Part shown: piece after piece, positions 6,447-27,790 of the stretch
Position numbering within the stretch: position 1 is the first letter of the stretch
How the letters are laid out: every line of letters begins with the position of its first letter
Source: Anaerolineaceae bacterium
Lineage (GTDB): Bacteria; Chloroflexota; Anaerolineae; Anaerolineales; Anaerolineaceae
Assembly: GCA_040769645.1 (NCBI GenBank)
Contig: JAXGKP010000002.1
Coordinates: 10,754-74,753 of the forward strand
Direction of reading: 5' to 3'
DNA length: 64,000 nt
Position numbers and translations under genes: made by a program
Notes under the pieces: model-generated
The model's input: only the letters and a program-made list of their open reading frames with translations
Databases searched by the model: none
Told to the model about the DNA's origin: nothing

Positions 6447-6500
6447 CTTTTGCTTCCCGGGCAGGCGGCAGTGCCGCCTGCCCAGTGATACCACCTTCCC

Positions 6501-10555: not shown

Positions 10556-11029
10556 TTAGTCTTCTTTGGTAAGGGTGGACAGATAGAAGGTCAGCCCCAT
10601 CTGTTCCATCTTGCTCATTTCGGTCTCGATATAATCGATGTGGTCTTCTTCTTCCACCAGGATGGAATCGAGCAGTTCCTTGGTGCCGTTGTCGCTGGCA
10701 TCCACGGCCACTTTAATTGCGGCGTTGTACTTATCGATGGCTTCCTGTTCGGCAGCGTGGTCATTCGCGAAAATCTTGGGGACGTCCGCGCCAATATGGA
10801 TTGCCTTTAGGTTGCTTACAATCGGCACGCCTTCCAGGAACAGGATGCGGGCGATGAGCTTTTCGGCATGGCGCATTTCTGTAATGGCACGTTTTTCAAT
10901 CGTTTCATGCAGCACAGGGTAACCCCAGTCTTCAGCCATCTCGCCGTGAACCATATACTGGTTGATGGCGGTCAATTCATCCGAGAGTAAATCATTTAAA
11001 ACTTCCAAAACTTTCTTATTACCTTTCAT
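10556..11029 (-). CDS. bfr: bacterioferritin
   Basis: 157 aa. MKGNKKVLEVLNDLLSDELTAINQYMVHGEM...EMRHAEKLIARILFLEG...EEEDHIDYIETEM is a classic Bfr di-iron and haem-Met pattern. Confidence 0.92.
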   Translation of the reverse strand: MKGNKKVLEVLNDLLSDELTAINQYMVHGEMAEDWGYPVLHETIEKRAITEMRHAEKLIARILFLEGVPIVSNLKAIHIGADVPKIFANDHAAEQEAIDKYNAAIKVAVDASDNGTKELLDSILVEEEDHIDYIETEMSKMEQMGLTFYLSTLTKED

Positions 11030-11225
11030 GTTCAGCTCCTTAAGTTAAACGTTTGTAGTGCTTATTATAGCATAGGCTGTCTGCAACGAATTTATCCCGA
11101 GAAGGCAAGGCATTATTCCAGGAAGCGCCTTCCCCGGGGATTCCCAACTTCCAAACCCTCCTTTGCAACCGCAATTTTTCCGGTTGTGTTTGTGGGTGAA
11201 GGCAAACAAGTAATATAATTCTGGC

Positions 11226-14048
11226 ATGGCAAATATCGCATTGCGCGTCAACGGCAGTCCCTATTCCCTCCCCGAAGTTCCCAACGAAACGCTCGCGTCC
11301 CTGTTGCGCGAGCGTTTGCGCCTGACCGGCACCAAAATTGGCTGCGGCGAGGGGCGCTGCGGCATTTGCACGGTGCTGGTGGAAGATCAACCGGTTAAGT
11401 CTTGCTTGTATCCCGTTAAAAAAGCCGCGGGCAAGTCTGTCCTAACGATTGAGGGGCTGCGCGCGCTCTCCCCCACCCCAGGCAGCCCGCATCCATTGCA
11501 AGAGGCTTTCCTTGCCTACGGCGCGATACAGTGCGGTTTTTGTACGCCCGCGCAAATAATCAACGCTTACGCTTACCTTTTGAAGCACCCGGACCCGGAT
11601 TACGAAGCGTTGAAAGCCGCGCTCAAGGATGTGCTTTGCCGCTGCGGCGCCTACGAGTCAATTCTCCAGGCAGTCCTCACTGCCGCTCAAGTGATGCGCG
11701 GCGGAGGTCCCCTGCCCCTTCCACAAATCAGCCTGACGTCAACCGAAACCCGAGCAATCGGCACCCTGCATCCCAGACCCGACGCGAGTGCGAAAGCTGA
11801 CGGTTCTGCTGTTTTTACCGATGACCTGAGCTTCCCCGGCATGCTCTACGCCCGCGTACTGCGCGCGAACACGCCCAGCGCAATACTGCGCTCGCTGGAT
11901 ATCACCCAGGCTTTGGCGCACCCGGGCGTACGCGCGGTTCTCACAGCCGAAGACCTGCCCGCGGCCCGTCGGCATGGTTTGTTCATCAATGACTGGCCGA
12001 TTTTGGTCGGACAGGGAGAACGCATCCGCACCATGGGGGACGCCCTGGCCTTAATCGCCGCGGAAACCCAGGCAGACGCCGACTCCGCGCTAAAGCTTAT
12101 TCGGGTGGAATTGGAGCCCCTGCCAGTGTTTTCCACGCCCCACCAGGCACTCGCTCCTGAGTCAGCCCCGCTGCACGAAAACGGCAACCTGCTGAAACAT
12201 ATCAAGGTGCGCAAAGGCGATCCCGGGCTGGGTTTTAAGGATGCGGAAATAATCGTTGAGCACAACTTCTACACACCATTTACTGACCATTTGTTTATGG
12301 AACCGGAATGCAGCATTGCCGTTCCCCTTTCAGACGGACGCATGGAAGTGTACGTGGGTTCTCAGATTCCCTATTCTGACCGCAGCCAGGTTGCAGCCGC
12401 CCTGGGCGTTCCGGAAGAGCAGGTGCGCATCCGCGGGCAGCTTACCGGTGGCGGCTTTGGCGGAAAAGAGGATATCGCCGGGCAGATTCACGCCGCTCTG
12501 CTTGCCCGGGCGGCAGGCAGGCCGGTTAAGCTGCTTTTTAGCCGGCGGGAGAGCCTGCTGGTGCACCCGAAACGGCACGCCACCCAAATCCGGGTGAAAT
12601 TGGGCGCGCGCAAAAATGGGGTGTTGGTTGCCGCGGAGACGGAGCTGTATGGAGATACCGGCGCGTATGCTTCGCTTGGCGAGAAAGTGATGACGCGCGC
12701 GACAACACATTCCACCGGGCCGTATGTCATTCCACACGTGAAAGCCGACTGTTTCGCTGTCTACACGAACAACCCGCCAGCCGGGGCGTTTCGCGGTTTT
12801 GGTGTTTTGCAGTCCGCCTTCGCGGTAGAAAGCACAATGGACATCCTCGCGCATGCGCTGGGAATGGACCCACTGGAGCTGCGTAAGATTAACGCTTTGC
12901 ATGAAGGCAGCCTGACCAATACCAATCAGCTGCTGGAAAACAGTGTTGGTTTACCAGATTGTCTTGAAGCGGTTGAACAAACCTTGCGTCAAGTGGCTGG
13001 TACAGAGCCATTTGCGCCCAAATCTCACACCCGCGCCGGAAAACAGTACTTGCGCTGCTGGGGGGTGGCGGCAGCTTACAAAAATACAGGTTTGGGAAGC
13101 GGCGCGGACGATGTCGGGGCTGCTGACGTTGAATTGCAATTGAACGGCAGGCTGCAGGTGCGCACTGCCGCGGCGGAAATCGGGCAGGGTTTGGTTACCA
13201 CCCTGCAGCTCATCGCGGCGGAGGTGTTCGCGCGAGACCCTGAAGACGTGGATGTGTTGGTTATGGATACCGACCTCACGCCCGACAGCGGCCCAACAAC
13301 GGCATCACGCCAGACGTTTGTGACTGGCGGGGCGGCTTTGCTTGCCGCTAAAGAGCTCAGGCAGCACATTCTGACGTACCTGGCTGTGCTCTGGAATGTG
13401 GAACCAGGGGTGATTTCCTTTAATGCTGAAGGCGCCCGTTCTGAGCTGCCTGAAATGACAGCCGCGGCTTACACGCATAGAATGCGCTGGGACGAAATCG
13501 CCGCGCTCATGGAGGCGAGCCCAGCCGGCCGGTCTATCCGCCGCGCGTATCACGCGCCGGAGACCAGCCCGCTCGGCGAAAGTGGGCCGATTCACTTTGC
13601 TTATTCATTCAGCGCGCAAGCGGTCGAGATTGAGGTGGAACTGGAGAGCGGCAGGGTACGGGTGCTACGGGTAATATCCGCCAATGACGCCGGGCGCGTG
13701 CTGAATCCCCTGGGCTTTCAGGGGCAGGTAGAAGGCGGGGTAATCATGGGTTTAGGGCACGCTTTGATGGAAGAATTCCGCGTGACCGGAGGCGTCATTG
13801 AATCCGATCGGATGGCACGCTGCCCAATCCCGCGCATGTCAGACAGCCCGCAGGTAATTTCCATCCCCGTAGAACATCCTACGGCCGAGGGTCCCTTCGG
13901 CGCCAAGGGCGTCGGCGAAATTGTTTGCATCCCGACCCCGCCCGCGATCGCAAACGCGCTGTACAACGCGATTGGGCTGCGGGTGTTCCGCCTGCCCATT
14001 CGACCGGAGGAAGTACTCGCTTTCCTGCAAGAGCACCCGCGAATTTAG
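11226..14048 (+). CDS. MOP-type aldehyde oxidoreductase / xanthine dehydrogenase family protein (fused 2x[2Fe-2S] + molybdopterin-binding domains, no FAD domain)
   Basis: 940 aa. N-terminal CGEGRCGICTV and CGFCTP...CRCGAY cluster motifs are followed directly by the aldehyde oxidase/XDH a/b-hammerhead and Moco domains (GGGFGGKE, GPYVIPH..., AGAFRGFG, GEIVCIPTPPAIANA). Length and layout match Desulfovibrio gigas MOP (about 907 aa). Confidence 0.85.
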   Translation: MANIALRVNGSPYSLPEVPNETLASLLRERLRLTGTKIGCGEGRCGICTVLVEDQPVKSCLYPVKKAAGKSVLTIEGLRALSPTPGSPHPLQEAFLAYGAIQCGFCTPAQIINAYAYLLKHPDPDYEALKAALKDVLCRCGAYESILQAVLTAAQVMRGGGPLPLPQISLTSTETRAIGTLHPRPDASAKADGSAVFTDDLSFPGMLYARVLRANTPSAILRSLDITQALAHPGVRAVLTAEDLPAARRHGLFINDWPILVGQGERIRTMGDALALIAAETQADADSALKLIRVELEPLPVFSTPHQALAPESAPLHENGNLLKHIKVRKGDPGLGFKDAEIIVEHNFYTPFTDHLFMEPECSIAVPLSDGRMEVYVGSQIPYSDRSQVAAALGVPEEQVRIRGQLTGGGFGGKEDIAGQIHAALLARAAGRPVKLLFSRRESLLVHPKRHATQIRVKLGARKNGVLVAAETELYGDTGAYASLGEKVMTRATTHSTGPYVIPHVKADCFAVYTNNPPAGAFRGFGVLQSAFAVESTMDILAHALGMDPLELRKINALHEGSLTNTNQLLENSVGLPDCLEAVEQTLRQVAGTEPFAPKSHTRAGKQYLRCWGVAAAYKNTGLGSGADDVGAADVELQLNGRLQVRTAAAEIGQGLVTTLQLIAAEVFARDPEDVDVLVMDTDLTPDSGPTTASRQTFVTGGAALLAAKELRQHILTYLAVLWNVEPGVISFNAEGARSELPEMTAAAYTHRMRWDEIAALMEASPAGRSIRRAYHAPETSPLGESGPIHFAYSFSAQAVEIEVELESGRVRVLRVISANDAGRVLNPLGFQGQVEGGVIMGLGHALMEEFRVTGGVIESDRMARCPIPRMSDSPQVISIPVEHPTAEGPFGAKGVGEIVCIPTPPAIANALYNAIGLRVFRLPIRPEEVLAFLQEHPRI

Positions 14049-14050
14049 CA

Positions 14051-14791
14051 TTATCCGTCCACTTTTTTCTTCCACTCAGCTTTCCATTCGGCATCGCGCC
14101 GGTGGGTGCCGTCGCAAAGCGGTTTATTGCTGGAATTCCCGCAGCAGCACAAAGTCACCCGGTTGCGCGCGACAAATGGGAGGCCGTCTGAACGTTTGAT
14201 GGCTAAATACCCTGTAACCCATAAGGGACCCCGGATTCGGCCTTGAGAAGTGACTTCAAAAGTCTCGGCAATTTCTTGCGGTAAGTCTGGTTCCACATCC
14301 GGTTCATCCGGGTCCAGCTGATAGGTCAGCGCGCCGGAAGGACAGCGTTCTATCATCGCAATAGCGAGAGAGCGCTTCAGCGTATCCTCAGATTCCGCCG
14401 TCAGCTGCACAATTCCGATGTCGCGCAGATTACAAAAACCCGAATTCATGCAGAGATCCCGTGATAGATGAACGATTATCTGTTTGCCGCCGGGGAGTAA
14501 CATAAAATCATCCGCGGTGCCATCGGTAACGGCTGTCTCTTTGCCATCAAAGGGTTTGAAGAGGTGGGTTTTATCGCAGAAAGGCATGTGTTTCGAGTTC
14601 CCACAGCGGCAGAGAGAATAGCGCTCACCTGGCAGCTGCAGCCGTTCGAGCAGCTGCCAACTCAGGGGTTCCCCATATTCTGAGACGATTTGAATCTTGC
14701 GAACGAGAGGAACCGCACCCTCAACGATATACGGACCCTTTTTCATAATAGAAATCCGCACGGGGTCTTTTTTGGCTGTTTCCTGGTCCAT
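14051..14791 (-). CDS. CDGSH-type iron-sulfur protein with two CDGSH motifs flanking a ferredoxin-like segment
   Basis: CRCGNSKHMPFCDKTH and CCCGNSSNKPLCDGTH. The ORF track gives 14051..14866. I prefer the MDQETAKK start at 14791 (AAGGA upstream). Confidence 0.75.
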   Translation of the reverse strand: MDQETAKKDPVRISIMKKGPYIVEGAVPLVRKIQIVSEYGEPLSWQLLERLQLPGERYSLCRCGNSKHMPFCDKTHLFKPFDGKETAVTDGTADDFMLLPGGKQIIVHLSRDLCMNSGFCNLRDIGIVQLTAESEDTLKRSLAIAMIERCPSGALTYQLDPDEPDVEPDLPQEIAETFEVTSQGRIRGPLWVTGYLAIKRSDGLPFVARNRVTLCCCGNSSNKPLCDGTHRRDAEWKAEWKKKVDG

Positions 14792-14984
14792 TAGTCCATC
14801 CTTTGTTTCCGGATATTCGGATAAATAATCATCTCCATTCTGAGAGTGCCTGCTTAATAATAGCAAGACTCCTGATTTTTAGAGTGTATAGTCTTTGTAT
14901 AGCCATTGCCTTGACAATAATAACTTGTGGAAGCTAAAATGTAAGCGGCATTAACAATGATCAATATTTAAATAGGAGCTTATC

Positions 14985-15155
14985 GTGAGACTCAATCAAC
15001 CCAAAGTGTTTACCTTTATCGTTTCTGTCGTGCTCGTCCTGATTGGCGTCATTGCTAAATTGGGAGTCATCGCCGCGCTGGCAAATTTCGCCTTCTGGTT
15101 TGTCTTGGTTGGCTTTATCCTGCTGGCTTTAGCTGTCCTCCTGAAGAATCTTTAA
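14985..15155 (+). CDS. small two-helix membrane protein (56 aa), GTG start
   Basis: Below the ORF-track size cut-off. AGGAGC lies 6 nt upstream of the GTG. Translation VRLNQPKVFTFIVSVVLVLIGVIAKLGVIAALANFAFWFVLVGFILLALAVLLKNL, followed by a strong hairpin. Confidence 0.45.
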   Translation: MRLNQPKVFTFIVSVVLVLIGVIAKLGVIAALANFAFWFVLVGFILLALAVLLKNL

Positions 15156-15170
15156 TCAACCGGTTTTGAG

Positions 15171-15200
15171 AATAATGGCTGCCTTGAGGCAGCCATTATT
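15171..15200. terminator. bidirectional terminator hairpin between convergent genes
   Basis: AATAATGGCTGCC-TTGA-GGCAGCCATTATT, a 13-bp perfect stem. Confidence 0.65.
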
Positions 15201-15215
15201 GTTTAATCCAGCCCT

Positions 15216-16376
15216 TCAGAGTTTTCGCGTATATTGCGCGGCGCCGGAACACCATACCTGGTTTTCCGGATCAATCCGATACCAGTTGTTCGTCACCTCG
15301 TAGACAGAAATCTGTTCACCTTTCCGCAGGTAGCCCGTAATGGCATAACTCGCGCTGGGTCCGCGCCGCTTATAAAGCGCCGTCACAATCACCTCTGCTT
15401 TGAACAGCGGTTGTTTCACCGGGTCGGGTTGACCTGGATCCAAGGGGCGCATGTAGCGCGCGTTTCCGGAACACCAAACGGAAGCCTGTGGATCAATCCG
15501 ATACCAATCTTCCTTAACCTCATAAACATCCACTTCTTCTCCCAGATTCAGCGAACCGACGACACTATATCGCGTGCCTGGACCTTCGCGCTTATAAAGC
15601 GCCGAGACTACGCAGCGGGCGCGGAATAGCACCTTGCCTGGTTCTGGTTGGGGTGGATTGGGCGTCCCATTGACCGGATAATTAAAGTAACGCAAGACAT
15701 CCGCCTTGCCGCCGTTCCAGCGGTCAAAATCCATATAGCGGCTGGCAGAGCCGATAGCTTTGTTTTTGTCGCCGGTCTGTTGAATCAGGTAAGTGTCGAC
15801 CCCTCTGGGTAAAGCGGGGGGCCCGGGGTGTTCCGGGGTGAAGCTGGGGTAAGGAAAAGGCTTTCGATAAGTTGCCAGCCACCAATCCAGGCGCGGCAGC
15901 TGTTCAATTTTGAGATAAGTGTCCACCCAGGACGCGCGCGAATAGCAAATCGGATACAAGCCGGTGCGCGCTTTGCAGATATCCAGGCATTTTTGGGTGG
16001 TTGAGGTAATGCGTTCGCGGGTATTGATTCCCGCCACTTCCAGGTCGAGAACCAGGCGGTCGTGAGTCCAATTTGCTTTGCCTTCAACAATCTTAAAGAG
16101 GGCGTCCATCTGGGATATCGCGCTTTCGCCGAAGTAGACAACCAGGTATGCCATGCGGCACACCTGAATGCGCGCCATTTCGCTCCAGTAATAATCAAAC
16201 TGGGGATCCTTATACCCCCAACACACCCCAGCCCGCGCGGCAATAAAGACCACCTCTTCGTTGTGAGCTTTCAAGGCATTAAAGTCCTGCCGTTTGGTAC
16301 CATCCTGGCTGGTTTGATATTTACTGATGTCTACACCAAATGCTCTGGTCATCGCGTCCTCCGGGGCGACCGGCAC
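15216..16376 (-). CDS. GH25 muramidase (lysozyme) with two C-terminal SH3b cell-wall-binding domains
   Basis: N-terminal FGVDISKYQ...VFIAARAG...LVLDLE resembles GH25. Two roughly 60-aa repeats follow (ALYKREGPGTRYSVVG...EDWYRIDP and ALYKRRGPSASYAITG...NNWYRIDP). No signal peptide. Confidence 0.75.
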   Translation of the reverse strand: MPVAPEDAMTRAFGVDISKYQTSQDGTKRQDFNALKAHNEEVVFIAARAGVCWGYKDPQFDYYWSEMARIQVCRMAYLVVYFGESAISQMDALFKIVEGKANWTHDRLVLDLEVAGINTRERITSTTQKCLDICKARTGLYPICYSRASWVDTYLKIEQLPRLDWWLATYRKPFPYPSFTPEHPGPPALPRGVDTYLIQQTGDKNKAIGSASRYMDFDRWNGGKADVLRYFNYPVNGTPNPPQPEPGKVLFRARCVVSALYKREGPGTRYSVVGSLNLGEEVDVYEVKEDWYRIDPQASVWCSGNARYMRPLDPGQPDPVKQPLFKAEVIVTALYKRRGPSASYAITGYLRKGEQISVYEVTNNWYRIDPENQVWCSGAAQYTRKL

Positions 16377-16813: not shown

Positions 16814-16848
16814 CAAAAATGACAGACCTCCCCAAAGGGAGGTCTGTC
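16814..16848 (-). terminator. rho-independent terminator ending the cytochrome/NOX-like transcription unit
   Basis: GACAGACCTCCC-CAAA-GGGAGGTCTGTC (12-bp perfect stem), followed on the minus strand by ATTTTTGAGG. Confidence 0.8.
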
Positions 16849-16863
16849 TCTTACGTTTAGGTT

Positions 16864-18156
16864 TTATGCCATCTCGTACTTTTCAGTTGCGATTTGGGCA
16901 TGGTCCACACCCATAGCTGCAAGGTGTTTATTCATCGCGTTCATCATAGGCATCGGACCGCACATAAAATAGAACAGTTCTTTGTAATTTTCCGGCAGGG
17001 TGCTGAGCAGCAGGTCTTTTGTGATGTAGCCCTTGTATTTACAGGCTTCAGGGCTTATCGGCTTCTCAAGCACTTTGACCACAGTCAGGTTCATGCGCGC
17101 TTTCAGCGCATCGAATTCTTGATCGAAAGCAGCGGTCTCCTCATTCAAGTCGCCGTAAAACACATACACAGGACGTTTATCACCGGTATCCGCGATGGTA
17201 TTGACCATACTCATCACCGGCGCGATACCAATCCCGCCGCCCATCAGAACCAGCCCCTTTTGCATACGCTCGTTCTTCAAATCAAATGTGCCGTGGGGAC
17301 CATCAATAAAGAACCGATCGCCAGGTTTCAGGTTCGGAATTGTATTGGTGAAGTCACCAGCTTTCTTGATTGAGAAGCGTACTTCGTCCCATTCCGTACT
17401 TCCGGAGTAAGAGAAGGGGTTTCTGCTGATTACAAAGGGCGAAGGTCCTTTGCTAATCCAGGCAACCTGACCCGCCTTGAAAGCAGGGCGTTTGAAGCCT
17501 TCCGGTTTCAAATAGACAGAGTAGGTGTCTTTGCCTTCTTCCACAACCTTGCTCACAGCATACGGATGTTTTCCAAGAATCAACGGACGAATCAACCGCA
17601 TGTACAACATAAGGCCGCCCCAGATAACGATCAACAGAATCCAGGCCGCAGCCATCGCGGGATCGCGCATATAGTAATTCCGCTTGAACATGTGCTGCAA
17701 ACCGAAAACCATGATCAATAGGGTGAGAAGATCATGCATCAGCAGCCAGGTAGTGTAACTGATTTTCAGCTGTTTACGGTAGATAGATGTAATCGCGATC
17801 AGAACCAAACCCGCCAAACCAATCCACCCGCCAATGATGAGGAAGCCTGAATAATATACGCTGCTGGTAAGCAACAGGATAAGTGGGTGCAGGGCAACCA
17901 GTAAGACCGAGGAAGCCGAGACAACATGGTGAATTTTGTACATCTTGTCCAATTCCACCACATCCGACAGCCAGGGGATTCTGGCAATGGGGAGAAATTG
18001 CATCCCCGCGATTGCCATCCCAAAGAATGCCAGCCCAACAGAGATATCCCGGATGGGCAGCGCCCAATTGGCTTTGACCAGCATGATTGCCAGGGGGGTC
18101 AGTGCGAGCGCAGCTGAAAGCGCCACAAATAATAGTAGTTTGGTTTTTAGGCTCAT
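16864..18156 (-). CDS. NOX/ferric-reductase-family flavocytochrome b (FRD transmembrane domain fused to FAD/NAD(P)H-binding dehydrogenase domain)
   Basis: 430 aa. The six-helix N-terminal half has two His pairs spaced 13-14 residues apart in separate helices (HHVVSASSVLLVALH; MHDLLTLLIMVFGLQH). FAD motif NPFSYS, NAD(P)H motif GGGIGIAP, C-terminal FMCGP. Confidence 0.8.
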   Translation of the reverse strand: MSLKTKLLLFVALSAALALTPLAIMLVKANWALPIRDISVGLAFFGMAIAGMQFLPIARIPWLSDVVELDKMYKIHHVVSASSVLLVALHPLILLLTSSVYYSGFLIIGGWIGLAGLVLIAITSIYRKQLKISYTTWLLMHDLLTLLIMVFGLQHMFKRNYYMRDPAMAAAWILLIVIWGGLMLYMRLIRPLILGKHPYAVSKVVEEGKDTYSVYLKPEGFKRPAFKAGQVAWISKGPSPFVISRNPFSYSGSTEWDEVRFSIKKAGDFTNTIPNLKPGDRFFIDGPHGTFDLKNERMQKGLVLMGGGIGIAPVMSMVNTIADTGDKRPVYVFYGDLNEETAAFDQEFDALKARMNLTVVKVLEKPISPEACKYKGYITKDLLLSTLPENYKELFYFMCGPMPMMNAMNKHLAAMGVDHAQIATEKYEMA

Positions 18157-18197
18157 GGTTGACGCGTCTCGATTTTTATAAGCGTTTCCGCGCCTGA

Positions 18198-19343
18198 TCA
18201 GGGGCGAACCAAACCCTTGGTGCTGACACCACTGAACTCAGACAGGTTCTCGATGGAGTCATACATCAACTGTAACGCGTATCTCGCGTTGTGAATGTAC
18301 GCAGCCGGATCCTTGGTAACGAACATCAGGTTGTAAGCCGCTTTGAGCATGCGGGGGGTGAAGGCTTTGAACTGATTCATGTATGCGGCTTCTTCTTCGC
18401 TAATGGTTCCGTCACCGTTCGTGTCAATGAAGGCGTATGGGTAGGCCATGGGGTTGAAGCCGAAGGTCGCGCCGGATTTGGCGGTGGAGTAGCCTGCGAG
18501 CGCTTTAACCAGAATGGCTTTCATGCCTTCGATTTCATCGTAGGTGCTCTCCACGGTCCCGTCACCGTCGTAGTCAACCTTTGCCAAAGAGATTTTCTTG
18601 TAATCCTGGTAGCTCTTGACATCGGAATGGCAGGTTGAGCACAGGTTGGCATCGCTGCCGGGGATTTTCTGCGTGTGCAGGCTGTGGGGGTCGTGGCATT
18701 CCGTGCAGGAATTCACAGGTTCGGCGTGCTTGAATGTACCAACATAGGATTTGCCTGGATATTGGAAGCCCATGCCGCCGTCAGCCCCAGCCATGGTAGC
18801 GGCCGCAGCCAAATAATGGTCAGCCATCATTTCCTGATCGGGCATGACATCATCTTCAGCCACACCCTTGACGGCATCGGTTACGTCCTTAGAAGAACCC
18901 AGACCGCTGTGGCAGGTGGCGCAAATCGCGCTCTTGCCAAGACCGGTCAATTGTTTTCCGTTGCCCAGGGTGGCGGCGTCCAGTTTATCTGCCGCATCGT
19001 TATGACATGCCGCGCAATTAATCGGATCCATCACCTTACCGGGCGCGTCAACTTTTCCAGCCTCGGAGCCATCGGCGCCCAGATAATCCCGGAAACCGGT
19101 GGTGCTGTGGCATTTTGCGCAGTACGTGGGGATTTCCTTAGGGTCTTCCGTGTTCCAATGATTAAAGGCATACGAGGACGCATCAGCATGTGCCGAACCA
19201 GCCCATTTCGCAGAAAAAGCATTCAGCTCCGCGGTAATTTCTTCAGCTGGTTCTTCAACTGCTGCTTTGGTAGTGCATCCGACCCAGGCGACCAGGGCCA
19301 ACGCGACTACGGCCAACAAAACGAACAACGTGCTCTTTTTCAT
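18198..19343 (-). CDS. pentahaem c-type cytochrome lipoprotein with EF-hand-like Ca-binding loops
   Basis: Signal/lipobox LVAWVGC. Five CxxCH motifs (CAKCH, CAACH, CATCH, CTECH, CSTCH). DTNGDGTISEEE is a canonical EF-hand loop, and DYDGDGTVES is a second, weaker one. Confidence 0.85.
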   Translation of the reverse strand: MKKSTLFVLLAVVALALVAWVGCTTKAAVEEPAEEITAELNAFSAKWAGSAHADASSYAFNHWNTEDPKEIPTYCAKCHSTTGFRDYLGADGSEAGKVDAPGKVMDPINCAACHNDAADKLDAATLGNGKQLTGLGKSAICATCHSGLGSSKDVTDAVKGVAEDDVMPDQEMMADHYLAAAATMAGADGGMGFQYPGKSYVGTFKHAEPVNSCTECHDPHSLHTQKIPGSDANLCSTCHSDVKSYQDYKKISLAKVDYDGDGTVESTYDEIEGMKAILVKALAGYSTAKSGATFGFNPMAYPYAFIDTNGDGTISEEEAAYMNQFKAFTPRMLKAAYNLMFVTKDPAAYIHNARYALQLMYDSIENLSEFSGVSTKGLVRP

Positions 19344-19391: not shown

Positions 19392-19435
19392 ATTATAAAA
19401 CTAAGTGCCTGTTTGTCAATGTGATAAAAAGCACA
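19392..19435 (-). promoter_or_regulatory. sigma-70-like promoter with an adjacent CRP/FNR-type half-palindrome, upstream of the cytochrome gene
   Basis: Minus strand reads TTGACA (19419-19414), 16 nt, TATAAT (19397-19392). Immediately upstream lies TGTGA-N6-GCACA (19420-19435), one mismatch from TGTGA-N6-TCACA. Confidence 0.4.
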
Positions 19436-19445
19436 AATCGACCAT

Positions 19446-19607
19446 TTAATTTGCATTTTCCAAATGCGGTTGAACGCTGTCTTTTTTCAAAGACGCGAGA
19501 GCCCGCCCGATCTTCCGGCTTTGCAAAAAAAGAATCACACAATACGCTGCCAGAAGCCCAAGAATGACGGCATACCCGGCAATAAAATAATTCAAAGTTT
19601 GCGCCAT
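19446..19607 (-). CDS. ccmD: CcmD-like small haem-exporter subunit (53 aa)
   Basis: Below the ORF-track cut-off. GGAGAATGAGATA precedes the ATG. MAQTLNYFIAGYAVILGLLAAYCVILFLQSRKIGRALASLKK... has a single TM helix and sits in the expected position directly after ccmC. Confidence 0.5.
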   Translation of the reverse strand: MAQTLNYFIAGYAVILGLLAAYCVILFLQSRKIGRALASLKKDSVQPHLENAN

Positions 19608-19611
19608 TATC

Positions 19612-20322
19612 TCATTCTCCCCAGTCGTAATCGCTGTCTACGGCAGCCATTTGTTGATTGAGTTCCTCCTGCTGTGCCATCAAGCGGGCTCGCTGCAGCA
19701 GCAGAGCAATGTATAAGACCGTAAACGCCGCCAAGGATATAAAAAGCGTAGCCACCATTTGCGGGTTGAGGTTCATCTCAGTTTCACCACCTCCAAAGAC
19801 CACCGGATGAATCGTGCGCAGCAAACGGGCGGAGAAAAAAGTAAGCGGCACGCTGATAAATCCAATAATTGCGTATACAGCGCTGAAACGGGCTCGTCGA
19901 GCCGGGTTGTCCACTCCCCTGCGCAGCAGAATGAACGCGATGTAGGTGAAAGCCATGATCGTGACCGTGGTCAGACGCGGGTCCCAGGTCCACCAGGTAT
20001 TCCAGATAGGACGCGCCCAAATCATCCCGCTAAGAATGCAAATAATGGTAAACAACAGCCCGACCTCCACGCTTGCCGCGGTCAGGGTATCCCACTTCAG
20101 ATCCTTCCGCGAGAGGTACAGGATGCCAAACGCCGCTGCCGCGAGAAATGCCAGCATTCCCACCCAGGCAGCGCTCATGTGGAAGTAAAAGACTTTCTGG
20201 ACCAGACCCATGGTTTGTTCTACCGGCGTGAAAAAAAGCACCCGAACGAACGCAAACAGGACCAGCGCAAATGCCAGAATTGAAAGGTACGACAAGAATT
20301 TATTCCTGGATGACATATTCAA
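19612..20322 (-). CDS. ccmC: haem exporter/haem lyase subunit CcmC
   Basis: WWD motif WNTWWTWDPRLT, polytopic, 236 aa. Confidence 0.88.
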   Translation of the reverse strand: MNMSSRNKFLSYLSILAFALVLFAFVRVLFFTPVEQTMGLVQKVFYFHMSAAWVGMLAFLAAAAFGILYLSRKDLKWDTLTAASVEVGLLFTIICILSGMIWARPIWNTWWTWDPRLTTVTIMAFTYIAFILLRRGVDNPARRARFSAVYAIIGFISVPLTFFSARLLRTIHPVVFGGGETEMNLNPQMVATLFISLAAFTVLYIALLLQRARLMAQQEELNQQMAAVDSDYDWGE

Positions 20323-20974
20323 ACACCATGATTGACAGCATAGTAACTACGGCGTCATATACCAACAGCAGGTTGAGCCAGCCGTTGATATCCTGCCCGG
20401 CTACGGAGCCAAGCAGCACACCACAGGATTTTACCACTGCCATATTAACCGGCAGCAGCAGCGGGAAAAGCAGGACGGGTAAAAGCAGGTCCCGCATGCG
20501 GGTTTGTACGGTCATGCTGGAGATAAGGGTGCCAGCCGCGCTGTAACCCCAGGCACCCAAAGCCAGCACGCCAAAAAACGCCCAGTTAAACAGAGACTGA
20601 TTATAGAGAATGGAATAGATCGGGATGACGAGCACAGCCAAAAAGACCATCATCAAAAGGTTGGTGAGCAGCTTCGCGAAATAAATCGCGGAAAGATCCG
20701 GCACCGCCATGATGAGCCCTTCAAAGCAGCCTTGGTCCTGTTCGGCGGTAAAGGAGCGGTTCAAACCGAGCGTGCCCGCGAATACCATCACCACCCACAC
20801 GATTCCGGGGGCAATTTCCGACCGGTTTATCGGCGAAAGCTCCAGCGCGTAATTAAAGATGAACAGCGAGAGCACCGCGAACGCCAACATGGAAGTGAGG
20901 ATATCGCGGCTGCGCCACTCCTGGAGCAAATCTTTCCAGACCAAAACGCGCACGGAGTGAAGCCAGGCTTTCAT
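20300..20974 (-). CDS. ccmB: haem exporter permease CcmB
   Basis: 224-aa six-helix membrane protein between ccmA and ccmC, with overlapping stop/start codons on both sides. Confidence 0.8.
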   Translation of the reverse strand: MKAWLHSVRVLVWKDLLQEWRSRDILTSMLAFAVLSLFIFNYALELSPINRSEIAPGIVWVVMVFAGTLGLNRSFTAEQDQGCFEGLIMAVPDLSAIYFAKLLTNLLMMVFLAVLVIPIYSILYNQSLFNWAFFGVLALGAWGYSAAGTLISSMTVQTRMRDLLLPVLLFPLLLPVNMAVVKSCGVLLGSVAGQDINGWLNLLLVYDAVVTMLSIMVFEYVIQE

Positions 20975-21699
20975 AACCGCTCCATCAGGGGCTTTTTTTC
21001 AGCGCCAAGCGCCGTGCTGTATTGTTCCTGCAAAGCGTCCAGGCTGACCCCGGCGTTTGGAAACTCAGCGGCAATCCTGCCGTGATGCAGGATAGCAAAG
21101 CGCGTGGCAATCTGACGGATGAAACTCAGTTCGTGCGTGGTCAGCAGAATCAATTTGTTGCGGGCGCTTTCTTCCTGTATCAACTGGTTCAACATACCGC
21201 AGCCCTGTTGGTCGAGCCCGGTATAGGGCTCATCGAACAAGAGAATTTGCGGGTCACATAAGAGCGCCCGCGCGATGGTCAGGCGCTGTTTCATCCCGCG
21301 TGAAAAGGCGCGGACCGGAATCGGGCGGGTTTTTCCCAACCCGACCCTGCTCATGAGCCTGTGTAAATCCCCCTCGTCGAGCGCAGTTTCGTAAAGACGG
21401 GAATAGAAGCGCAGATTCTCCATTCCGGTCAGGTGCTCATATAAGAATGGTTGGTGCAAGATTATTCCAATGTTTCGGCGCAATTTCAGAATGTTTTCGT
21501 CCTCCGCTTCAACGCCGAATAGTACCTTGCCGCTGTCTGGTTTCTGCAGCCCGCTGAGCGTACGGATGAGGGTGGTTTTCCCGGCTCCGTTTGGACCCAA
21601 AAGGCAAACAACCTCCCCCGCGTCAATGGACAGGTCCAGCCTATCCAAAACGCGCTGCGCGCCGTACGCTTTAGAGACCTGCCGCGCTTGTAGTCTCAA
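20971..21699 (-). CDS. ccmA: haem exporter ATPase CcmA
   Basis: ABC ATPase with GPNGAGKTT, FSRGMKQRLTIA and LLFDEP. Confidence 0.8.
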   Translation of the reverse strand: MRLQARQVSKAYGAQRVLDRLDLSIDAGEVVCLLGPNGAGKTTLIRTLSGLQKPDSGKVLFGVEAEDENILKLRRNIGIILHQPFLYEHLTGMENLRFYSRLYETALDEGDLHRLMSRVGLGKTRPIPVRAFSRGMKQRLTIARALLCDPQILLFDEPYTGLDQQGCGMLNQLIQEESARNKLILLTTHELSFIRQIATRFAILHHGRIAAEFPNAGVSLDALQEQYSTALGAEKKPLMERL

Positions 21700-23710
21700 G
21701 AGTATCCTCCATCAGCCGTGTTTCCTCATCCTGATCCCCGCGTTTGCCGGGCAATGTGACAGCCAGCGCGCCGCCCAAGGTCATGAAAACCCCGCCAATC
21801 CACATTAAGTTGACCAGAGGGTTATCGGACAGGCGCAAAGTTATATAAGGAACATCAATGTCGTAGCCAGCCAACAGAGTATAGACATCTCCCTGCAGGG
21901 TGGCACGCGCGTCTGGGATGGTGATGTACTGTTGGCGGTCCGGATAGATGTGCTGCGCCGGGCTCAGGCGCGCGATTTCTTTACCGTCTTTATAGAGAAT
22001 CGTTTCAGCCTTGACGGTCTTGTACTCGGGATTTTCATAACTTTCGTTCACGGAGACAAACTCAATCTCGTAGCCGCGCAGGGGCATCTTTTCCCCGGGC
22101 AGCATAGTTCCCTCAATACTGGCCGAGAGATTTCCCATCCCGATAACCCCAAGGGCAATCAGAAGTATGCCGGCATGAACCAGCCAGGCGCCGTAGCGCG
22201 CGCGCTGATTCCACCAGAGGTTCGGAAAACGCTTTAAACCAACCGCTTTCGCATCCAGTGCGGTCAGGTAAATCAATGTGGTCAACCCCAGGATGACGAT
22301 AAAAACCCCTCCAAGCGCCCAAACCTGACGCACGCCGCTCAGGAAGACCGCCAATAGGCCCAGCCCGCCGGCGCTCAGTGGAATCCAAAACTTTTTTCCG
22401 AATTGCTTGAGTCTGGCAGCATTCCAACCCACCAGGGGGCAAACCGCCATCAGAACCACCAGCAGCGCGAAAAGCGGCGTGGTGCTGCGGTCATAAAATC
22501 CTCGATGCAGGGTCATCTCAACCCCGGATAGCGCGCCTTTAGCCATTGGGTAGAGCAGCCCCCACAGACAAATCAGTACAAGCGCGATCAGGATAATGTT
22601 GGTATAGAGAAATAAGGCTTCCCGACTGAAAGCCGAACCAAATTTCCACTCGCGGTCGAGCGCTTTCCAGCGCCACACCAACAAAATAGTCGAGCCAATT
22701 AACAGAATCAGCAAAAAGCCGAGCAGAGGGAGAGCGATACTGCTTTCTCCAAACGCGTGCACCGAGCTGACCAAACCCGACCTTGTGACAAAAATGCTGA
22801 AGACAACCAACAAATAGCTTAGCAGAACGAGCAGCAAATTAAAGCGTTGGAATATTTTTTGCCGCCTTTCCAACAGTAAGCTGTGCAGCAGCGCGGTGCT
22901 GGAAAGCCAGGGCAGCAGCGAGGCGGTTTCGACGGGGTCCCAGGCCCAATACCCGCCCCACCCCAATACATCATAAGACCACCAACTGCCCAGGACAATC
23001 CCGGCGCCAAGGAAGACCCAGGCGCCCAAGAGCCAGGCGCGGGATTGGTCCAGAAGCTGATCACCCTCAACGCCGCGGATGAGCCCAGAGATGCCTAAGG
23101 CAAATGGGACCAGATAGAGAGCGTAACCGATATAGAGCAGCGGTGGATGGATGACCATGCCGGGATGCCGCAGCAAAGGATTCAGGCCCATACCATTGTT
23201 AAGTTTTTCAACAAGCGCGCCCACCCCAGGCGCGAACAGACTTGTAGTCAGGCTGCCATCAGCCAGCGTCCAAATGCGGGTAAAAGGGTTGTCTGCCACG
23301 AGAGATAACCCGAGAAACAGGATTTGGTTTAAATTAACGACAAGAAAAGACCAATTATCCAGCAAAGGTTTCTTACCGGAAAGCGCCAAAAAGGCGCATA
23401 ATGAGACTATCCAACTCCAGAAGAATAGTGAGCCGGTCTGCCCGCCCCACAGGGCTGTAAGTTTGAGGATCCACGGCATCGCCGGGTTGATAACCGAGAC
23501 GACATGCATATTGGTGTAATCTTGTGTTACCTGCATGATCATCAGAGTAAGCAGCGCGGCGCTGTGAGTAAAGAAACCTAGTTTGGTCAGCAAAACAGCC
23601 GCGCCAGGCAGCCGGGTTTGTTTGCGAATTAGGGCAACAATCACCAAAACCAGCGCCACAGCGCTGGCAGCCATGGCGAAAGAAGACGTCAGAAAACCAA
23701 GATAGAACAT
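21671..23710 (-). CDS. ccmF: cytochrome c haem lyase subunit CcmF
   Basis: 679 aa, polytopic, WWD motif WGGYWAWDPVETASLLPW. Confidence 0.9.
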   Translation of the reverse strand: MFYLGFLTSSFAMAASAVALVLVIVALIRKQTRLPGAAVLLTKLGFFTHSAALLTLMIMQVTQDYTNMHVVSVINPAMPWILKLTALWGGQTGSLFFWSWIVSLCAFLALSGKKPLLDNWSFLVVNLNQILFLGLSLVADNPFTRIWTLADGSLTTSLFAPGVGALVEKLNNGMGLNPLLRHPGMVIHPPLLYIGYALYLVPFALGISGLIRGVEGDQLLDQSRAWLLGAWVFLGAGIVLGSWWSYDVLGWGGYWAWDPVETASLLPWLSSTALLHSLLLERRQKIFQRFNLLLVLLSYLLVVFSIFVTRSGLVSSVHAFGESSIALPLLGFLLILLIGSTILLVWRWKALDREWKFGSAFSREALFLYTNIILIALVLICLWGLLYPMAKGALSGVEMTLHRGFYDRSTTPLFALLVVLMAVCPLVGWNAARLKQFGKKFWIPLSAGGLGLLAVFLSGVRQVWALGGVFIVILGLTTLIYLTALDAKAVGLKRFPNLWWNQRARYGAWLVHAGILLIALGVIGMGNLSASIEGTMLPGEKMPLRGYEIEFVSVNESYENPEYKTVKAETILYKDGKEIARLSPAQHIYPDRQQYITIPDARATLQGDVYTLLAGYDIDVPYITLRLSDNPLVNLMWIGGVFMTLGGALAVTLPGKRGDQDEETRLMEDTLETTSAAGL

Positions 23711-23732
23711 AGAGGGTGCCTCGGGGTTTGCG

Positions 23733-24218
23733 TTAGTTGGGCTTATCGGGCAAATCAGCTTCGTATTTTGATGGACATTTCAGGAGCAGTTCGCTCACCT
23801 GAAAAACGCCATTTTTGTCCAGGGCGCCGGTCATAATCGCCTGGGCTTCGTCTTTCAGAAGGTCGGGCCGGGGTCCTTTGTAATGCACGGTCATCTTTGG
23901 CAGGTTTGGGTCATGCGCAGCCTGCGCGAGCACTACCGACATCCCACCCATTGCTTTAATGAGCTTGTGGTCACCCGGAATCTGGGCGACTTCAAAGCTA
24001 AGGTCCAACGTTTTTGGGTCATAAGAAATCGTATCGCCCAGCACAACCCCGGAAACGCGAAGGTTTTTTCCGACGAGTTCGGCTTGACCGGATTTCAGTT
24101 CCTCAACCGTCATAAAGTATTGCGACTGTGACAAAGTGGAACTGATAACAAGGTATAAGAGCGCAGCTGTAATCACCACAATGCCAATGATAAGCTTAAT
24201 ATTTTTCTTTGTTTTCAA
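23733..24218 (-). CDS. ccmE: haem chaperone CcmE, variant with Cys in place of the haem-binding His (CxxxY)
   Basis: The ORF track extends to 24383, but a TTG at 24218 preceded by GAGGTG gives MKTKKNIKLIIGIVVITAALLYLV (membrane anchor) plus an OB-fold region (NLRVSGVVLGDTISYD). The C-terminal motif is LLLKCPSKYEAD, with the CPSKY codons at 23763-23777. Confidence 0.8.
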   Translation of the reverse strand: MKTKKNIKLIIGIVVITAALLYLVISSTLSQSQYFMTVEELKSGQAELVGKNLRVSGVVLGDTISYDPKTLDLSFEVAQIPGDHKLIKAMGGMSVVLAQAAHDPNLPKMTVHYKGPRPDLLKDEAQAIMTGALDKNGVFQVSELLLKCPSKYEADLPDKPN

Positions 24219-24383
24219 GTAATTTAACACCTCAAATAAAATGGGCTTTATTGTAGTTGATATTATACATTTATGGGTGTCAACCCATATCCGTGTAGAC
24301 CTCTGAAAACAGTTCCGCGGCCCGCCCTTGCCCATTGAAGGCGGCGCTGGAACGCGCCCCAGGTCAAATCGCTTTTCGCGCAA

Positions 24384-24572: not shown

Positions 24573-24605
24573 AATGACCGCGCTGGGGTTTCCAGCGCGG
24601 TCATT
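24573..24605 (-). terminator. rho-independent terminator after parB
   Basis: AATGACCGCGCTGG-GGTTT-CCAGCGCGGTCATT (14-bp perfect stem), followed on the minus strand by TTATTTACC. Confidence 0.7.
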
Positions 24606-24624: not shown

Positions 24625-25767
24625 CTATCGCAGGCTGCCCAGGCGCTGTTTAACCGCCTTGGTTAACTCCTCCAGATGCGTCATCAGGCGTTGGACCTCT
24701 TCTTTGTCGGATTCACTGACCAGCGCGTCCGCAAGGGAGCCGATTTTGTCATCCTGCGGCAGTTCATCCACGTTCAACAAAACGCGTTTGAGTGAGCGCG
24801 CCGATTTGGTCGCCGGGTCAGCTGGCAGTCGTACCGCGCGTTGTTTTTCGCGCCCGCAAGCACGTTCCAGGAAGGAATGCACATCCTGATAGGTGCGTCC
24901 TTCGTGTTCCGCGTAGTATGCCACCGCGCCCGCCCAGTATTGCGGGTCGTACGCCATAATTTCTCTTAACACTCTTTCCGGCATCTCGGCCCGGTCGCAG
25001 ATTTCCAAGAGGTTTTCCGGCAGTTCAAAAAACTTCATCAATCGTCCGTAGTAGGTGCGTTCCAGCTGCAGGGTTTTCATCAGCACATCGCGGGTCTCAT
25101 CACTCAGGCGCACCTCACCAATTTTCCGAAAGAAAGCAAACTCATCTTCCTCATTTCCGGGTTTGATGTTATTTGCCTCCAAGACCATACGAGCCGCCGC
25201 GCGTGCTTTGCCCACCGGAGTCAGAGCCTTATAGGCCATATTCTCCGCGATTTGCTTCTCGAGACTGGGCTGATTGTCAATCAGGGCGAGCACGTACGGT
25301 TCCTCTTCCAACCCTTCGCGCACCGACTTGAGGGCGGTGGCCCAGAACCGTCTTTCGCCGGTCAGCATCTGGAATATGTCCCTGCCCTGGATGTTGATTA
25401 CCTGCCCGGTAACCGGTTTGATTTGCCCGGTATCGTGAAGGGAGTCCCCCAACGCGATAAGTTCTTCAATTTCGCGTCGGATAAGTCGGTCGTGTTCAGC
25501 CAGCTTAAGCCACCTGCGCACGGTCTCCGCCCATCCGGCTTTTTGGGAAAAGAAATCTTCCCGCAATTCATACGGCAGCATAAAGCGCGCCTGAAAACGG
25601 TCCGGCCGGATCATGGAAAGCGGCACGCGGTATACACTTTGCCGGTTGTTCACCATCTTTGGAGCATCTTCCGGGTAAGACGCCTCAGATTCAGCCGTGC
25701 TGGCTCCAAACGCGGTGGTCGTAATATTAATTAAATCTCCAAAACCTTTTTTCTTTGGTTCAGCCAT
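24625..25767 (-). CDS. ParB/Srx-family N-terminal-domain protein (atypical ParB, 380 aa)
   Basis: VPLSMIRPDRFQARF plus the arginine-patch-like LTGERRFWATAL. AAAGGAAG RBS. Directly downstream of parA. Confidence 0.75.
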   Translation of the reverse strand: MAEPKKKGFGDLINITTTAFGASTAESEASYPEDAPKMVNNRQSVYRVPLSMIRPDRFQARFMLPYELREDFFSQKAGWAETVRRWLKLAEHDRLIRREIEELIALGDSLHDTGQIKPVTGQVINIQGRDIFQMLTGERRFWATALKSVREGLEEEPYVLALIDNQPSLEKQIAENMAYKALTPVGKARAAARMVLEANNIKPGNEEDEFAFFRKIGEVRLSDETRDVLMKTLQLERTYYGRLMKFFELPENLLEICDRAEMPERVLREIMAYDPQYWAGAVAYYAEHEGRTYQDVHSFLERACGREKQRAVRLPADPATKSARSLKRVLLNVDELPQDDKIGSLADALVSESDKEEVQRLMTHLEELTKAVKQRLGSLR

Positions 25768-25804
25768 TTTACAGCTTCCTTTCTAACTTTCTCGCTTTCC
25801 AAAC

Positions 25805-25820
25805 TGTGCCCATGGGCACA
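25805..25820. repeat. 16-bp perfect palindrome TGTGCCCATGGGCACA (copy 1), candidate parS-like site
   Basis: Located in the 87-bp parA-parB spacer. The 22-nt block CAAACTGTGCCCATGGGCACAC is identical to the one at 28015-28037. Confidence 0.6.
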
Positions 25821-25854
25821 CCCTCCGGTTTTGTACACGCTGCTCGCGTTCAGG

Positions 25855-26685: not shown

Positions 26686-26783
26686 AAGCGCTCGCGCTCC
26701 TTTTCCATGAAATCAAGCTCTTAGTTATTTTACATTACTTTTTGTCTTTTTCAAGTTATTCCTGAATATTGATTGTAATTTCC

Positions 26784-26812
26784 TTCTCAGTTACCTAAAG
26801 TGAGCATATAAT
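26784..26812 (+). promoter_or_regulatory. candidate promoter in the AT-rich divergent region
   Basis: TTCTCA, 17 nt, TATAAT, about 65 nt upstream of the AAA+ gene. Confidence 0.3.
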
Positions 26813-26877
26813 ATTATGCACTTGACTTAATTCAACGCGCATGCTAACCTGTTAGTACATATAAGGAGCCGCAGCCT

Positions 26878-27684: not shown

Positions 27685-27790
27685 TCCTCGTAATTTCTGT
27701 GTGTATTACTGGCGCTTTGGATTATGCAAAGAGCAACCTTACAAATATTCTTATGGACATCGGTAATCTACTGAAAGCAGCTAAAGGTTC

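Follow-up and report, generated by a model that had tools for sequence, protein, structure and literature searches.

Organization of the locus

In a 64-kb window of an Anaerolineaceae genome (contig JAXGKP010000002.1; the window is the whole stretch of 64,000 nucleotides analyzed), two genes on the minus strand encode a pentahaem cytochrome c and a membrane protein in which a ferric-reductase domain of the NOX type is fused to an FNR-type dehydrogenase (FRD-FNR). The initial annotation of this DNA described the two genes as adjoining, co-directional and served by one strong terminator. Open reading frames (ORFs), translations and Pfam matches confirmed the gene arrangement, and a GC-rich hairpin followed by a T-run was found 3' of the FRD-FNR gene (16848..16821 on the minus strand), bearing out the terminator. 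The elements of the locus are as follows.

18198..19343, minus strand: pentahaem cytochrome c gene, 381 aa (translation, Pfam)
16864..18156, minus strand: FRD-FNR gene, 430 aa (translation, Pfam)
19392..19419, minus strand: sigma-70-type promoter of the two-gene unit, TTGACA-16-TATAAT, a 12/12 consensus match (consensus scan)
16821..16848, minus strand: intrinsic terminator, 12-bp stem with 8 GC pairs, 4-nt loop, then ATTTTT

Only 41 bp separate the two genes, and no terminator lies inside this gap. The promoter sits 49 bp 5' of the cytochrome start codon. Its -35 box, CACATTGAC, is unchanged in seven relatives and its TATAAT in five, while the rest of the intergenic region has diverged. Because of this conserved consensus promoter, we treat the cytochrome and FRD-FNR genes as their own transcription unit.

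The FRD-FNR protein is of the NOX type

The FRD-FNR protein consists of two domains.

17572..18156, minus strand: ferric-reductase (NOX-type) transmembrane (TM) domain, residues 1-195 (PF01794, invariant His, AlphaFold2 helices, SpNOX match)
16864..17562, minus strand: cytoplasmic FNR-type dehydrogenase domain, residues 199-430 (PF00175, NCBIfam, invariant motifs, structural matches)

Pfam Ferric_reduct (PF01794) matches residues 45-151 with 30.7 bits, against a cut-off of 28, and NAD_binding_1 (PF00175) matches residues 304-409 with 61.4 bits. The NCBIfam matches are to FNR-family dehydrogenases only and cover the C-terminal half. Public annotations of such proteins read 'ferric reductase-like' or 'ferredoxin reductase family', and 'cytochrome c3 family' for the cytochrome. 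The AlphaFold2 (AF2) model of FRD-FNR (pLDDT 87.3, pTM 0.80) has TM helices at residues 3-28, 34-52, 69-97, 105-125, 134-159, and 166-195, followed by the FAD beta-barrel and the Rossmann domain.

The six-helix domain with two His pairs in separate helices, as first annotated, was recovered: His76 and His90 are in TM3 and His141 and His155 in TM5. All four are invariant in an alignment of 20 FRD-FNR homologues (A1), which was used for invariance and for the profile search. The two His of each pair have 13 residues between them, in TM3 and TM5 alike, within the 12-14 residues by which the NOX/FRE filter defines two His pairs (PMC5676040). The FAD (NPFSYS) and NAD(P)H (GGGIGIAP) motifs named in the initial annotation were likewise found in the fused dehydrogenase domain, as R245-N-P-F-S-Y-S and as G307-GGIGIAP with C399-G-P, along with a C-terminal aromatic residue, Y427. 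R245-N-P-F-S, G307-G-I-G-x-A-P, and C399-G-P are also invariant in the 20 homologues. The stretch that follows the second Rossmann strand is acidic and has no Arg, a hint that the substrate may be NADH.

The profile of the 20 homologues found SpNOX as the best solved relative, nearly over the full length and with an E-value of about 1e-25. FNR-family dehydrogenase domains and DUOX1 followed. SpNOX (8qt6) was also the first Foldseek match of the model (E 3.5e-22, TM-scores 0.77/0.82, full length), and human NOX2 was matched as well (query TM-score 0.72). In SpNOX the inner haem is ligated by H69 and H129 and the outer haem by H83 and H142 (PMC11564096). By homology, His76 and His141 would bind the inner haem b and His90 and His155 the outer one. 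The three outer loops of the model have just 5-7 residues each and are likewise short in SpNOX, where they expose the outer haem to solvent (PMC11564096).

Likeness to SpNOX over the full length of both sequence and structure raises the possibility of a true NADPH oxidase that turns O2 into superoxide or H2O2, as SpNOX was first reported to do, with the cytochrome incidental or a scavenger. SpNOX does consume O2 in vitro (PMC5676040). However, position 4 after the outer-haem His is an invariant Leu (Leu94) in alignment A1, whereas a His at this TM3 position (His-119 of NOX2) is found in NOX enzymes and missing from FRE metal reductases (PMC3591440). The FAD motif also differs. It is NPFS[YFI] in the window protein and all 20 aligned homologues rather than H[PSA]F[TS][LIMV], a filter that defines bacterial NOX (PMC5676040); a distant paired relative (L080) has HPFSI. 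Leu94 and NPFSY would set the FRD-FNR protein apart from dedicated O2-reducing oxidases. In addition, the hosts are obligate anaerobic fermenters, and an oxidase would leave the near-obligate pairing with a cytochrome, described below, unexplained. We regard an oxidase as highly improbable.

The cytochrome belongs to an unclassified pentahaem family

The cytochrome is the sole ORF of the window with more than one CxxCH motif. It has five, CAKCH75, CAACH110, CATCH141, CTECH213, and CSTCH235 (Cys positions), and scores above the Pfam cut-offs for Cytochrome_C7 and Paired_CXXCH_1. Its N-terminus, MKKSTLFVLLAVVALALVAWVGC23, has a K-rich n-region, a hydrophobic core and a lipobox-like A-W-V-G-C23. 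The window protein thus has the five haem sites and the lipobox of the lipobox-anchored cytochrome in the initial annotation, but the lipoprotein anchor is confined to its closest clade. Across 28 homologues (alignment A2), only that clade keeps the lipobox Cys, and most others have an N-terminal hydrophobic helix without a Cys. The predicted membrane tether is general in the family; lipidation is not. All five CxxCH motifs and five more His (52, 176, 206, 220, and 351) are invariant across the 28. These five His would fit five bis-His haems or four bis-His haems plus one catalytic His equally well. The homologues are strongly acidic, with a mean net charge of -31 and a pI of about 4.6.

Two conserved EF-hand-like or dockerin-like loops lie in the C-terminal helical domain at residues 255-318 (window 18390..18581, minus strand). 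Their sequences are DYDGDGTVE and DTNGDGTISEEE, and the family patterns in the 28-homologue alignment are DYDGDG and DxNxDGxxxxxE. Pfam EF-hand_5 falls just under its cut-off and Dockerin_1 has an E-value of 0.11. The loops could serve structural Ca binding or docking.

The AF2 model of the cytochrome (pLDDT 74.8) has an N-terminal helix, a disordered linker, the haem domain, and long C-terminal helices. With this model of moderate confidence, the top Foldseek match is OcwA and is weak (E 0.057, probability 0.92, TM-scores 0.36/0.30), with NrfA and octahaem nitrite reductases (ONR) next at E-values above 0.6. A PDB sequence search with the cytochrome alone gave no meaningful match. The profile of the 28 homologues found NrfA (3ubr, E 7e-6; the match is partial and ambiguous) and OcwA (6i5b, E 0.004) in the PDB. 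The five haem sites are all CxxCH, none is the CxxCK of NrfA, and the window protein has no match to Cytochrom_C552 (PF02335). That model matches 11 of the 28 family members, all below threshold. Membership in a named Pfam or NCBIfam family was rejected, as only generic multihaem models were above their cut-offs and the NrfA, NrfB, MtrC, and DmsE-type models were below theirs. We treat the cytochrome as an unclassified pentahaem family that is distant kin of the NrfA/OcwA group.

This kinship allows for a cytochrome that is itself a catalytic reductase at the end of the same membrane path. It would reduce or detoxify nitrite, hydroxylamine, NO, sulfite, or peroxide, with FRD-FNR in place of the usual quinol-dependent NrfH or NrfBCD donor. 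The A2 profile and Foldseek both lead to NrfA and OcwA, one HMMER alignment pairs haem 1 (CAKCH) with the active-site CWSCK of NrfA, and the five extra His fit four distal ligands plus a catalytic His as well as five distal ligands. Long C-terminal helices follow the haem domain in the model, as in the NrfA family, and OcwA itself reduces nitrite and hydroxylamine (PMC6703420). However, the CxxCK motif is absent, Cytochrom_C552 is found in only part of the family and below threshold, the fold scores are weak (E at least 0.057, TM-score at most 0.37), and the HMMER alignments are ambiguous, since haems 2-3 align with haems 2-3 of NrfA in one case and with its haems 4-5 in another. Conserved nitrogen- or sulfur-cycle genes were not seen near the pair in the loci examined, and doubled homologues occur in multi-cytochrome clusters typical of electron-transfer chains (see below). 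We consider a catalytic reductase unlikely.

The two genes are conserved together

We scanned one genome per species. An FRD-FNR relative was found in 163 genomes, and 80 loci with flanks of at most 10 kb were kept. All 80 are from Chloroflexota and mostly from Anaerolineae. Anaerolineaceae make up the majority, and Ca. Mesolinea, Pelolinea, Brevefilum, and Thermoflexales are also represented. The isolate Pelolinea submarina MO-CFX1 carries the pair (L044).

With the window proteins as tblastn queries, a cytochrome homologue adjoins the FRD gene in 71 loci. Eight further loci, without a cytochrome match, end at or near the upstream edge of the FRD gene. Among the 53 informative loci, which have at least 1.3 kb on both sides of the FRD gene, the pair is adjacent in 52. 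The cytochrome gene is upstream and co-directional in 40 of these, downstream and convergent in eight, and upstream and divergent in four. The median gap in the co-directional class is 43 bp (all 57 such loci). The more closely one protein of a locus resembles its window counterpart, the more closely the other does too (r = 0.93 between the identities, n = 71), and adjacency persists down to about 36% identity. That the genes stay adjacent in three arrangements and over this range points to a functional linkage rather than operon inertia. The pairing is far beyond chance, and co-occurrence in relatives, on which the initial annotation had made its reading depend, is borne out.

A search from the most distant paired FRD protein returned 5,135 related clusters. 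The pair is also found in a metagenome-assembled genome labelled KSB1 and on a 966-kb contig. In the former (L086, contig JAPDQB010000001.1, 304 kb, labelled candidate division KSB1), the pair occurs with an Omp85-domain gene. Here the pair may have been transferred horizontally into a diderm, or the contig may be wrongly binned or classified. The organism is common, as the exact window protein turns up in 169 sample blocks.

The surroundings of the pair also bear on whether it could be an assimilatory ferric reductase like yeast FRE or plant FRO. In that case extracellular Fe(III) chelates would be reduced so that the Fe(II) can be taken up, and the cytochrome would be the reductase that faces the iron. 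The 13-residue spacing in both His pairs and the lack of His-119 are FRE-like (PMC3591440), the predicted 'MsrQ-like' systems have been tied to iron assimilation via VIT1 (PMC8238504), and a ferritin gene lies 6 kb from the pair in the window. Yet an iron transporter is conserved next to the pair in no locus examined, and the ferritin neighbour was not seen in distant annotated loci. The hosts are strict anaerobes of digesters and sediments with Fe(II) at hand, and a Ccm system plus a five-haem protein seems a costly outlay for iron uptake. Such a role is quite improbable.

Fusions and module swaps in the two protein families

Among 150 representatives of the wider FRD-FNR family are two fusions, both confirmed with Pfam. 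A 718-aa protein (P0462) has a signal peptide and three class-I cytochrome c domains before the FRD-FNR core, and a 610-aa protein (P0481) joins one monohaem cytochrome c domain and an extra TM helix to FRD-FNR. In the topology of both, the cytochrome part is on the outer face.

The cytochrome in turn is found with other membrane modules. In Caldilineaceae and other Anaerolineae, longer homologues (about 650 aa) have a duplicated pentahaem module and are presumably decahaem. Two are at L084:8001-9956 and L085:5971-7974 (P0181 and P0164). The doubled homologues have no FRD gene beside them and instead adjoin either a cytochrome b561-type gene with other multihaem proteins or NrfD with a 4Fe-4S protein and NapC/NirT. 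The b561-type and NrfD/NapC genes are input modules that usually oxidize quinol, and the clusters look like quinol-fed electron-transfer chains. It appears that the cytochrome family is served by the membrane electron-input module present in a given lineage, and that in Anaerolineaceae-type fermenters this module is the NOX-type protein.

Cytochrome c maturation genes are a frequent neighbour

Upstream of the pair in the window are genes for cytochrome c maturation (ccm).

19446..24383, minus strand: ccm (System I) cluster and small ORF (Pfam, NCBIfam, gene calls on identical contigs)
23733..24383, minus strand: ccmE
21671..23710, minus strand: ccmF
20971..21699, minus strand: ccmA
20300..20974, minus strand: ccmB
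19612..20322, minus strand: ccmC
19446..19607, minus strand: small 53-aa ORF (no Pfam match)

From its size and position only, we suspect the 53-aa ORF of being CcmD-like. The ccmE ORF codes for 216 aa from its first possible start, while gene callers on identical contigs give 161-165 aa, and the true start is probably internal. A terminator (24605..24573, minus strand) lies between the ccm cluster and the upstream ParB-like gene.

The pair had initially been placed immediately downstream of a complete ccm operon. The genes ccmE-F-A-B-C are indeed upstream on the same strand, but no CcmG or CcmH was found among the scanned ORFs of the window (they may be elsewhere in the genome), and the pair has its own promoter. 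Near the pair, ccm genes are present in 28 of the 49 loci with at least 4.5 kb upstream, in three arrangements. They are upstream and co-directional in eight loci and divergent in 14; the other 27 have none upstream, six of these having CcmF directly downstream. This downstream CcmF, a divergent one (28-30% identical to the window CcmF; Pfam CcmF_C) directly 3' of the FRD gene, is found in a Pelolinea-like clade (L045:7350-9356; also L042, L047, L048, L052, and L063). Given the conserved promoter and the variable ccm linkage, we rejected the pair as the mere tail of a ccm operon as the sole reading. The stretch from the small ORF to the promoter of the pair showed no terminator, so transcription from ccm may read through into the pair.

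The adjacency could also stem from shared haem or cytochrome biogenesis or a shared regulon, with FRD-FNR acting for example as a reductant for Ccm or serving an unrelated acceptor. The ccm genes are often beside the pair, and without CcmG or CcmH in the scanned part of the window the reductant for the CxxCH thiols and haem is locally unaccounted for. The adjacency of the FRD and cytochrome genes (52/53) is, however, far tighter than that with ccm (28/49) and holds where ccm is absent. The fusions link FRD-FNR to cytochrome domains and not to Ccm proteins, and a bis-haem b conduit is no known thiol reductant. We give a biogenesis or regulon origin very little weight.

A proposed path for electron export

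Together, the observed domain architecture, cofactor-binding residues, NOX fold, conserved pairing, fusions, and module swaps are what a functional reading has to build on. We think it fairly probable that the pair is a two-protein, quinone-independent module for transmembrane electron export, from NAD(P)H to FAD, two b haems, and a pentahaem cytochrome c outside the membrane. The FNR-type domain would oxidize NAD(P)H in the cytoplasm and pass the hydride to FAD. Single electrons would then step to the inner haem b, ligated by His76/His141, and on to the outer one, ligated by His90/His155. The outer haem, beneath very short loops, would reduce the pentahaem cytochrome tethered by its N-terminus to the outer face of the cytoplasmic membrane, and this acidic, distantly NrfA/OcwA-like cytochrome would hand the electrons to an extracytoplasmic oxidant.

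We infer the transfer from FRD-FNR to the cytochrome and its direction from the NOX and MsrQ precedents, the cytochrome c data for SpNOX, and the doubt about O2. Under anoxia, SpNOX reduces cytochrome c directly at 124.7 per min, compared with 48 per min for O2 (PMC11564096). Its outer haem is open to solvent and no O2 site can be recognised in the protein, and the authors of that study allow that O2 may not be the physiological acceptor (PMC11564096). The proposal in the initial annotation that the co-encoded cytochrome and not O2 is the acceptor is supported by these data, the conserved pairing, the fusions, the module swaps, and the absence of a His-119 equivalent.

The module would act as an electron sink of saccharolytic, fermentative Anaerolineaceae, regenerating NAD+ without H2 or reduced fermentation products. 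Outward electron flow through NOX proteins pumps no protons; it is electrogenic at the expense of membrane potential, and the module would therefore be for redox balancing rather than energy conservation. Other genes of the window include amylases, sugar ABC transporters, a ROK kinase, pyrimidine genes, and glutamine synthetase, and no respiratory complexes are encoded in the rest of the 64 kb. These sugar-use genes and the lack of respiratory complexes in the window fit a saccharolytic fermenter. To our knowledge, no quinones have been detected in cultured Anaerolineae. Many Chloroflexota are without quinone pathways (PMC13386864).

Several points weigh against electron export as proposed. 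One informative locus (L075) has an FRD gene and no cytochrome within 6 kb, and the convergent and divergent arrangements mean that not all of the pairs are co-transcribed. Confidence in the cytochrome model is moderate (pLDDT 74.8), and the two segments of the model below 50 carry candidate distal haem ligands. The weak fold and profile matches of the cytochrome are to the NrfA/OcwA family. Some enzymes of that family have open catalytic haems, and the cytochrome may therefore be a small-molecule reductase instead of a relay. Since NOX-type export dissipates membrane potential, the benefit must be redox balancing alone. The presumed quinone-free status is drawn from a general statement about Chloroflexota (PMC13386864) and from species descriptions of Anaerolineae. 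In the flanks examined, no further conserved partner such as a nanowire, pilin, or extra cytochrome was seen. Finally, one tethered protein of roughly 40 kDa would probably not reach through a cell wall, which makes it doubtful that electrons are truly passed to minerals or partner cells outside.

Soluble or shuttle acceptors such as Fe(III) chelates, humic quinones, and flavins seem likelier than direct mineral contact, and a partner cell is possible as an acceptor. More tentatively, and with some doubt on our part, the module might support quinone-free, NADH-driven extracellular electron transfer (EET) in fermentative Anaerolineae, to humics, Fe(III), conductive particles, or methanogens, with c-type cytochromes as the native acceptors of this NOX clade.

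Other genes in the window

Upstream of ccm, 24625..29950 encodes a ParB_N-like protein (380 aa), a ParA/CbiA-like ATPase, an AAA_22 ATPase, and a 719-aa protein without a Pfam match. It may be a partition-like or defence-like island. Downstream of the pair, 10556..16376 encodes a GH25 lysozyme with SH3 domains, a CDGSH/Fer4_19 iron-sulfur protein, the ferritin, and a 940-aa molybdoenzyme of the xanthine-dehydrogenase family with fused 2Fe-2S domains. The GH25 and CDGSH neighbours are retained in close relatives only. An AbiEi/AbiEii toxin-antitoxin pair (43206..44646, minus strand) lies in the pyrimidine cluster between a pyrK-like gene (42446..43216) and pyrD (44689..45621). An ECF-type riboflavin transporter is encoded at 4065..7373 on the plus strand, with a fused ATPase, a riboflavin S component, and a CbiQ/EcfT subunit, which suggests flavin uptake.

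Comparison with known systems

The extracellular and periplasmic multihaem pathways known to us all draw their electrons from the quinone pool or from complexes of several subunits. If the proposed path is true, the pair would be the simplest such route, a single-polypeptide conduit from NAD(P)H to a cytochrome that is workable without quinones. Anaerolineae are abundant in anaerobic digesters and anoxic sediments and have repeatedly been suspected of electron exchange with methanogens. We found no molecular mechanism described for this exchange in the literature. Quinone-free EET through the pair, if true, would account for the frequent link of Anaerolineae with direct interspecies electron transfer, and the pair is a candidate marker gene set for electron exchange in this group. 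As a two-gene module it would also be attractive for engineering electron export from NADH pools.

The initial annotation knew of no NAD(P)H-to-multihaem cytochrome route of this kind in a monoderm. We likewise found no description of an FRD-FNR and multihaem cytochrome pair in the literature, but an analogous FRD route from NAD(P)H to a flavinylated partner has been predicted (PMC8238504). A 2026 preprint on multihaem cytochromes from peat and supplements on quinone distribution held nothing on Anaerolineae. The only EET precedent from the Chloroflexota that we found in the literature is Ardenticatena maritima, for which EET was modelled with an NADH-quinone oxidoreductase and surface cytochromes (PMC5808234).

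Among other organisms that are not classical respirers, Listeria, with flavin-based EET, and Methanosarcina, with Rnf-MmcA, also shed cytoplasmic reducing power outside the cell. Listeria EET needs Ndh2 and a demethylmenaquinone, and Rnf is a multi-subunit, ion-translocating, ferredoxin-driven complex. The pair described here has one NOX-type polypeptide and one cytochrome, with no coupling site. As in the pair, a membrane complex donates to a multihaem cytochrome in Rnf-MmcA (PMC6703419).

OcwA of the Thermincola chain (6i5b; PMC6703420) is, like the pentahaem cytochrome, an extracytoplasmic multihaem cytochrome c of a monoderm. The two may also have an NrfA-like core and C-terminal helices in common, OcwA being the top, though weak, match to the modelled fold. 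OcwA has nine haems and resides in the outer cell wall, where it is a terminal reductase fed by other cytochromes. The cytochrome described here has five haems, a membrane tether, and a NOX-type protein as its proposed direct donor.

SpNOX (PDB 8qq7 and 8qt6) resembles FRD-FNR in being a single chain with six TM helices, bis-haem b, an FAD/NAD(P)H dehydrogenase, and short outer loops, and direct reduction of cytochrome c in vitro is a feature of SpNOX (PMC11564096, PMC5676040). The two proteins are about 20% identical. In TM5, 13 residues separate the His in FRD-FNR compared with 12 in SpNOX, and the FAD motif is NPFSY instead of HPF[TS]. SpNOX is without a known partner protein, whereas here a dedicated cytochrome is co-encoded. 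We know of no c-type cytochromes made by S. pneumoniae, the SpNOX host. The co-encoded and sometimes fused cytochrome is a concrete candidate for the physiological acceptor of bacterial NOX-type proteins. If true, at least one large clade of bacterial 'NADPH oxidases' would have c-type cytochromes, and not oxygen, as its native acceptors.

In MsrQ-MsrP (E. coli YedZ/YedY), an FRD membrane haem protein also feeds a dedicated extracytoplasmic partner (PMC11564096, PMC12525009). MsrQ has no fused dehydrogenase and uses quinol or Fre, and MsrP, which repairs methionine sulfoxide, is a molybdoenzyme rather than a multihaem cytochrome. The 'MsrQ-like' systems of Méheust et al. (2021, PMC8238504) do combine PF01794 with a C-terminal PF00175 and are predicted to pass NAD(P)H electrons to an extracytosolic protein, and flavinylated proteins and cytochromes were described there as interchangeable modules (PMC8238504). 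Both the function of those systems and that of the pair are predicted. Theirs have ApbE and an FMN-binding protein and are mainly from Actinobacteria; the Anaerolineae systems have a pentahaem cytochrome c, often with Ccm nearby. Neither ApbE nor an FMN-binding protein was among the Pfam families within 10 kb of the pair or in the distant loci examined. The closest characterized protein is SpNOX, the closest characterized principle is transfer from MsrQ to MsrP, and the closest described system is the predicted 'MsrQ-like' cluster.

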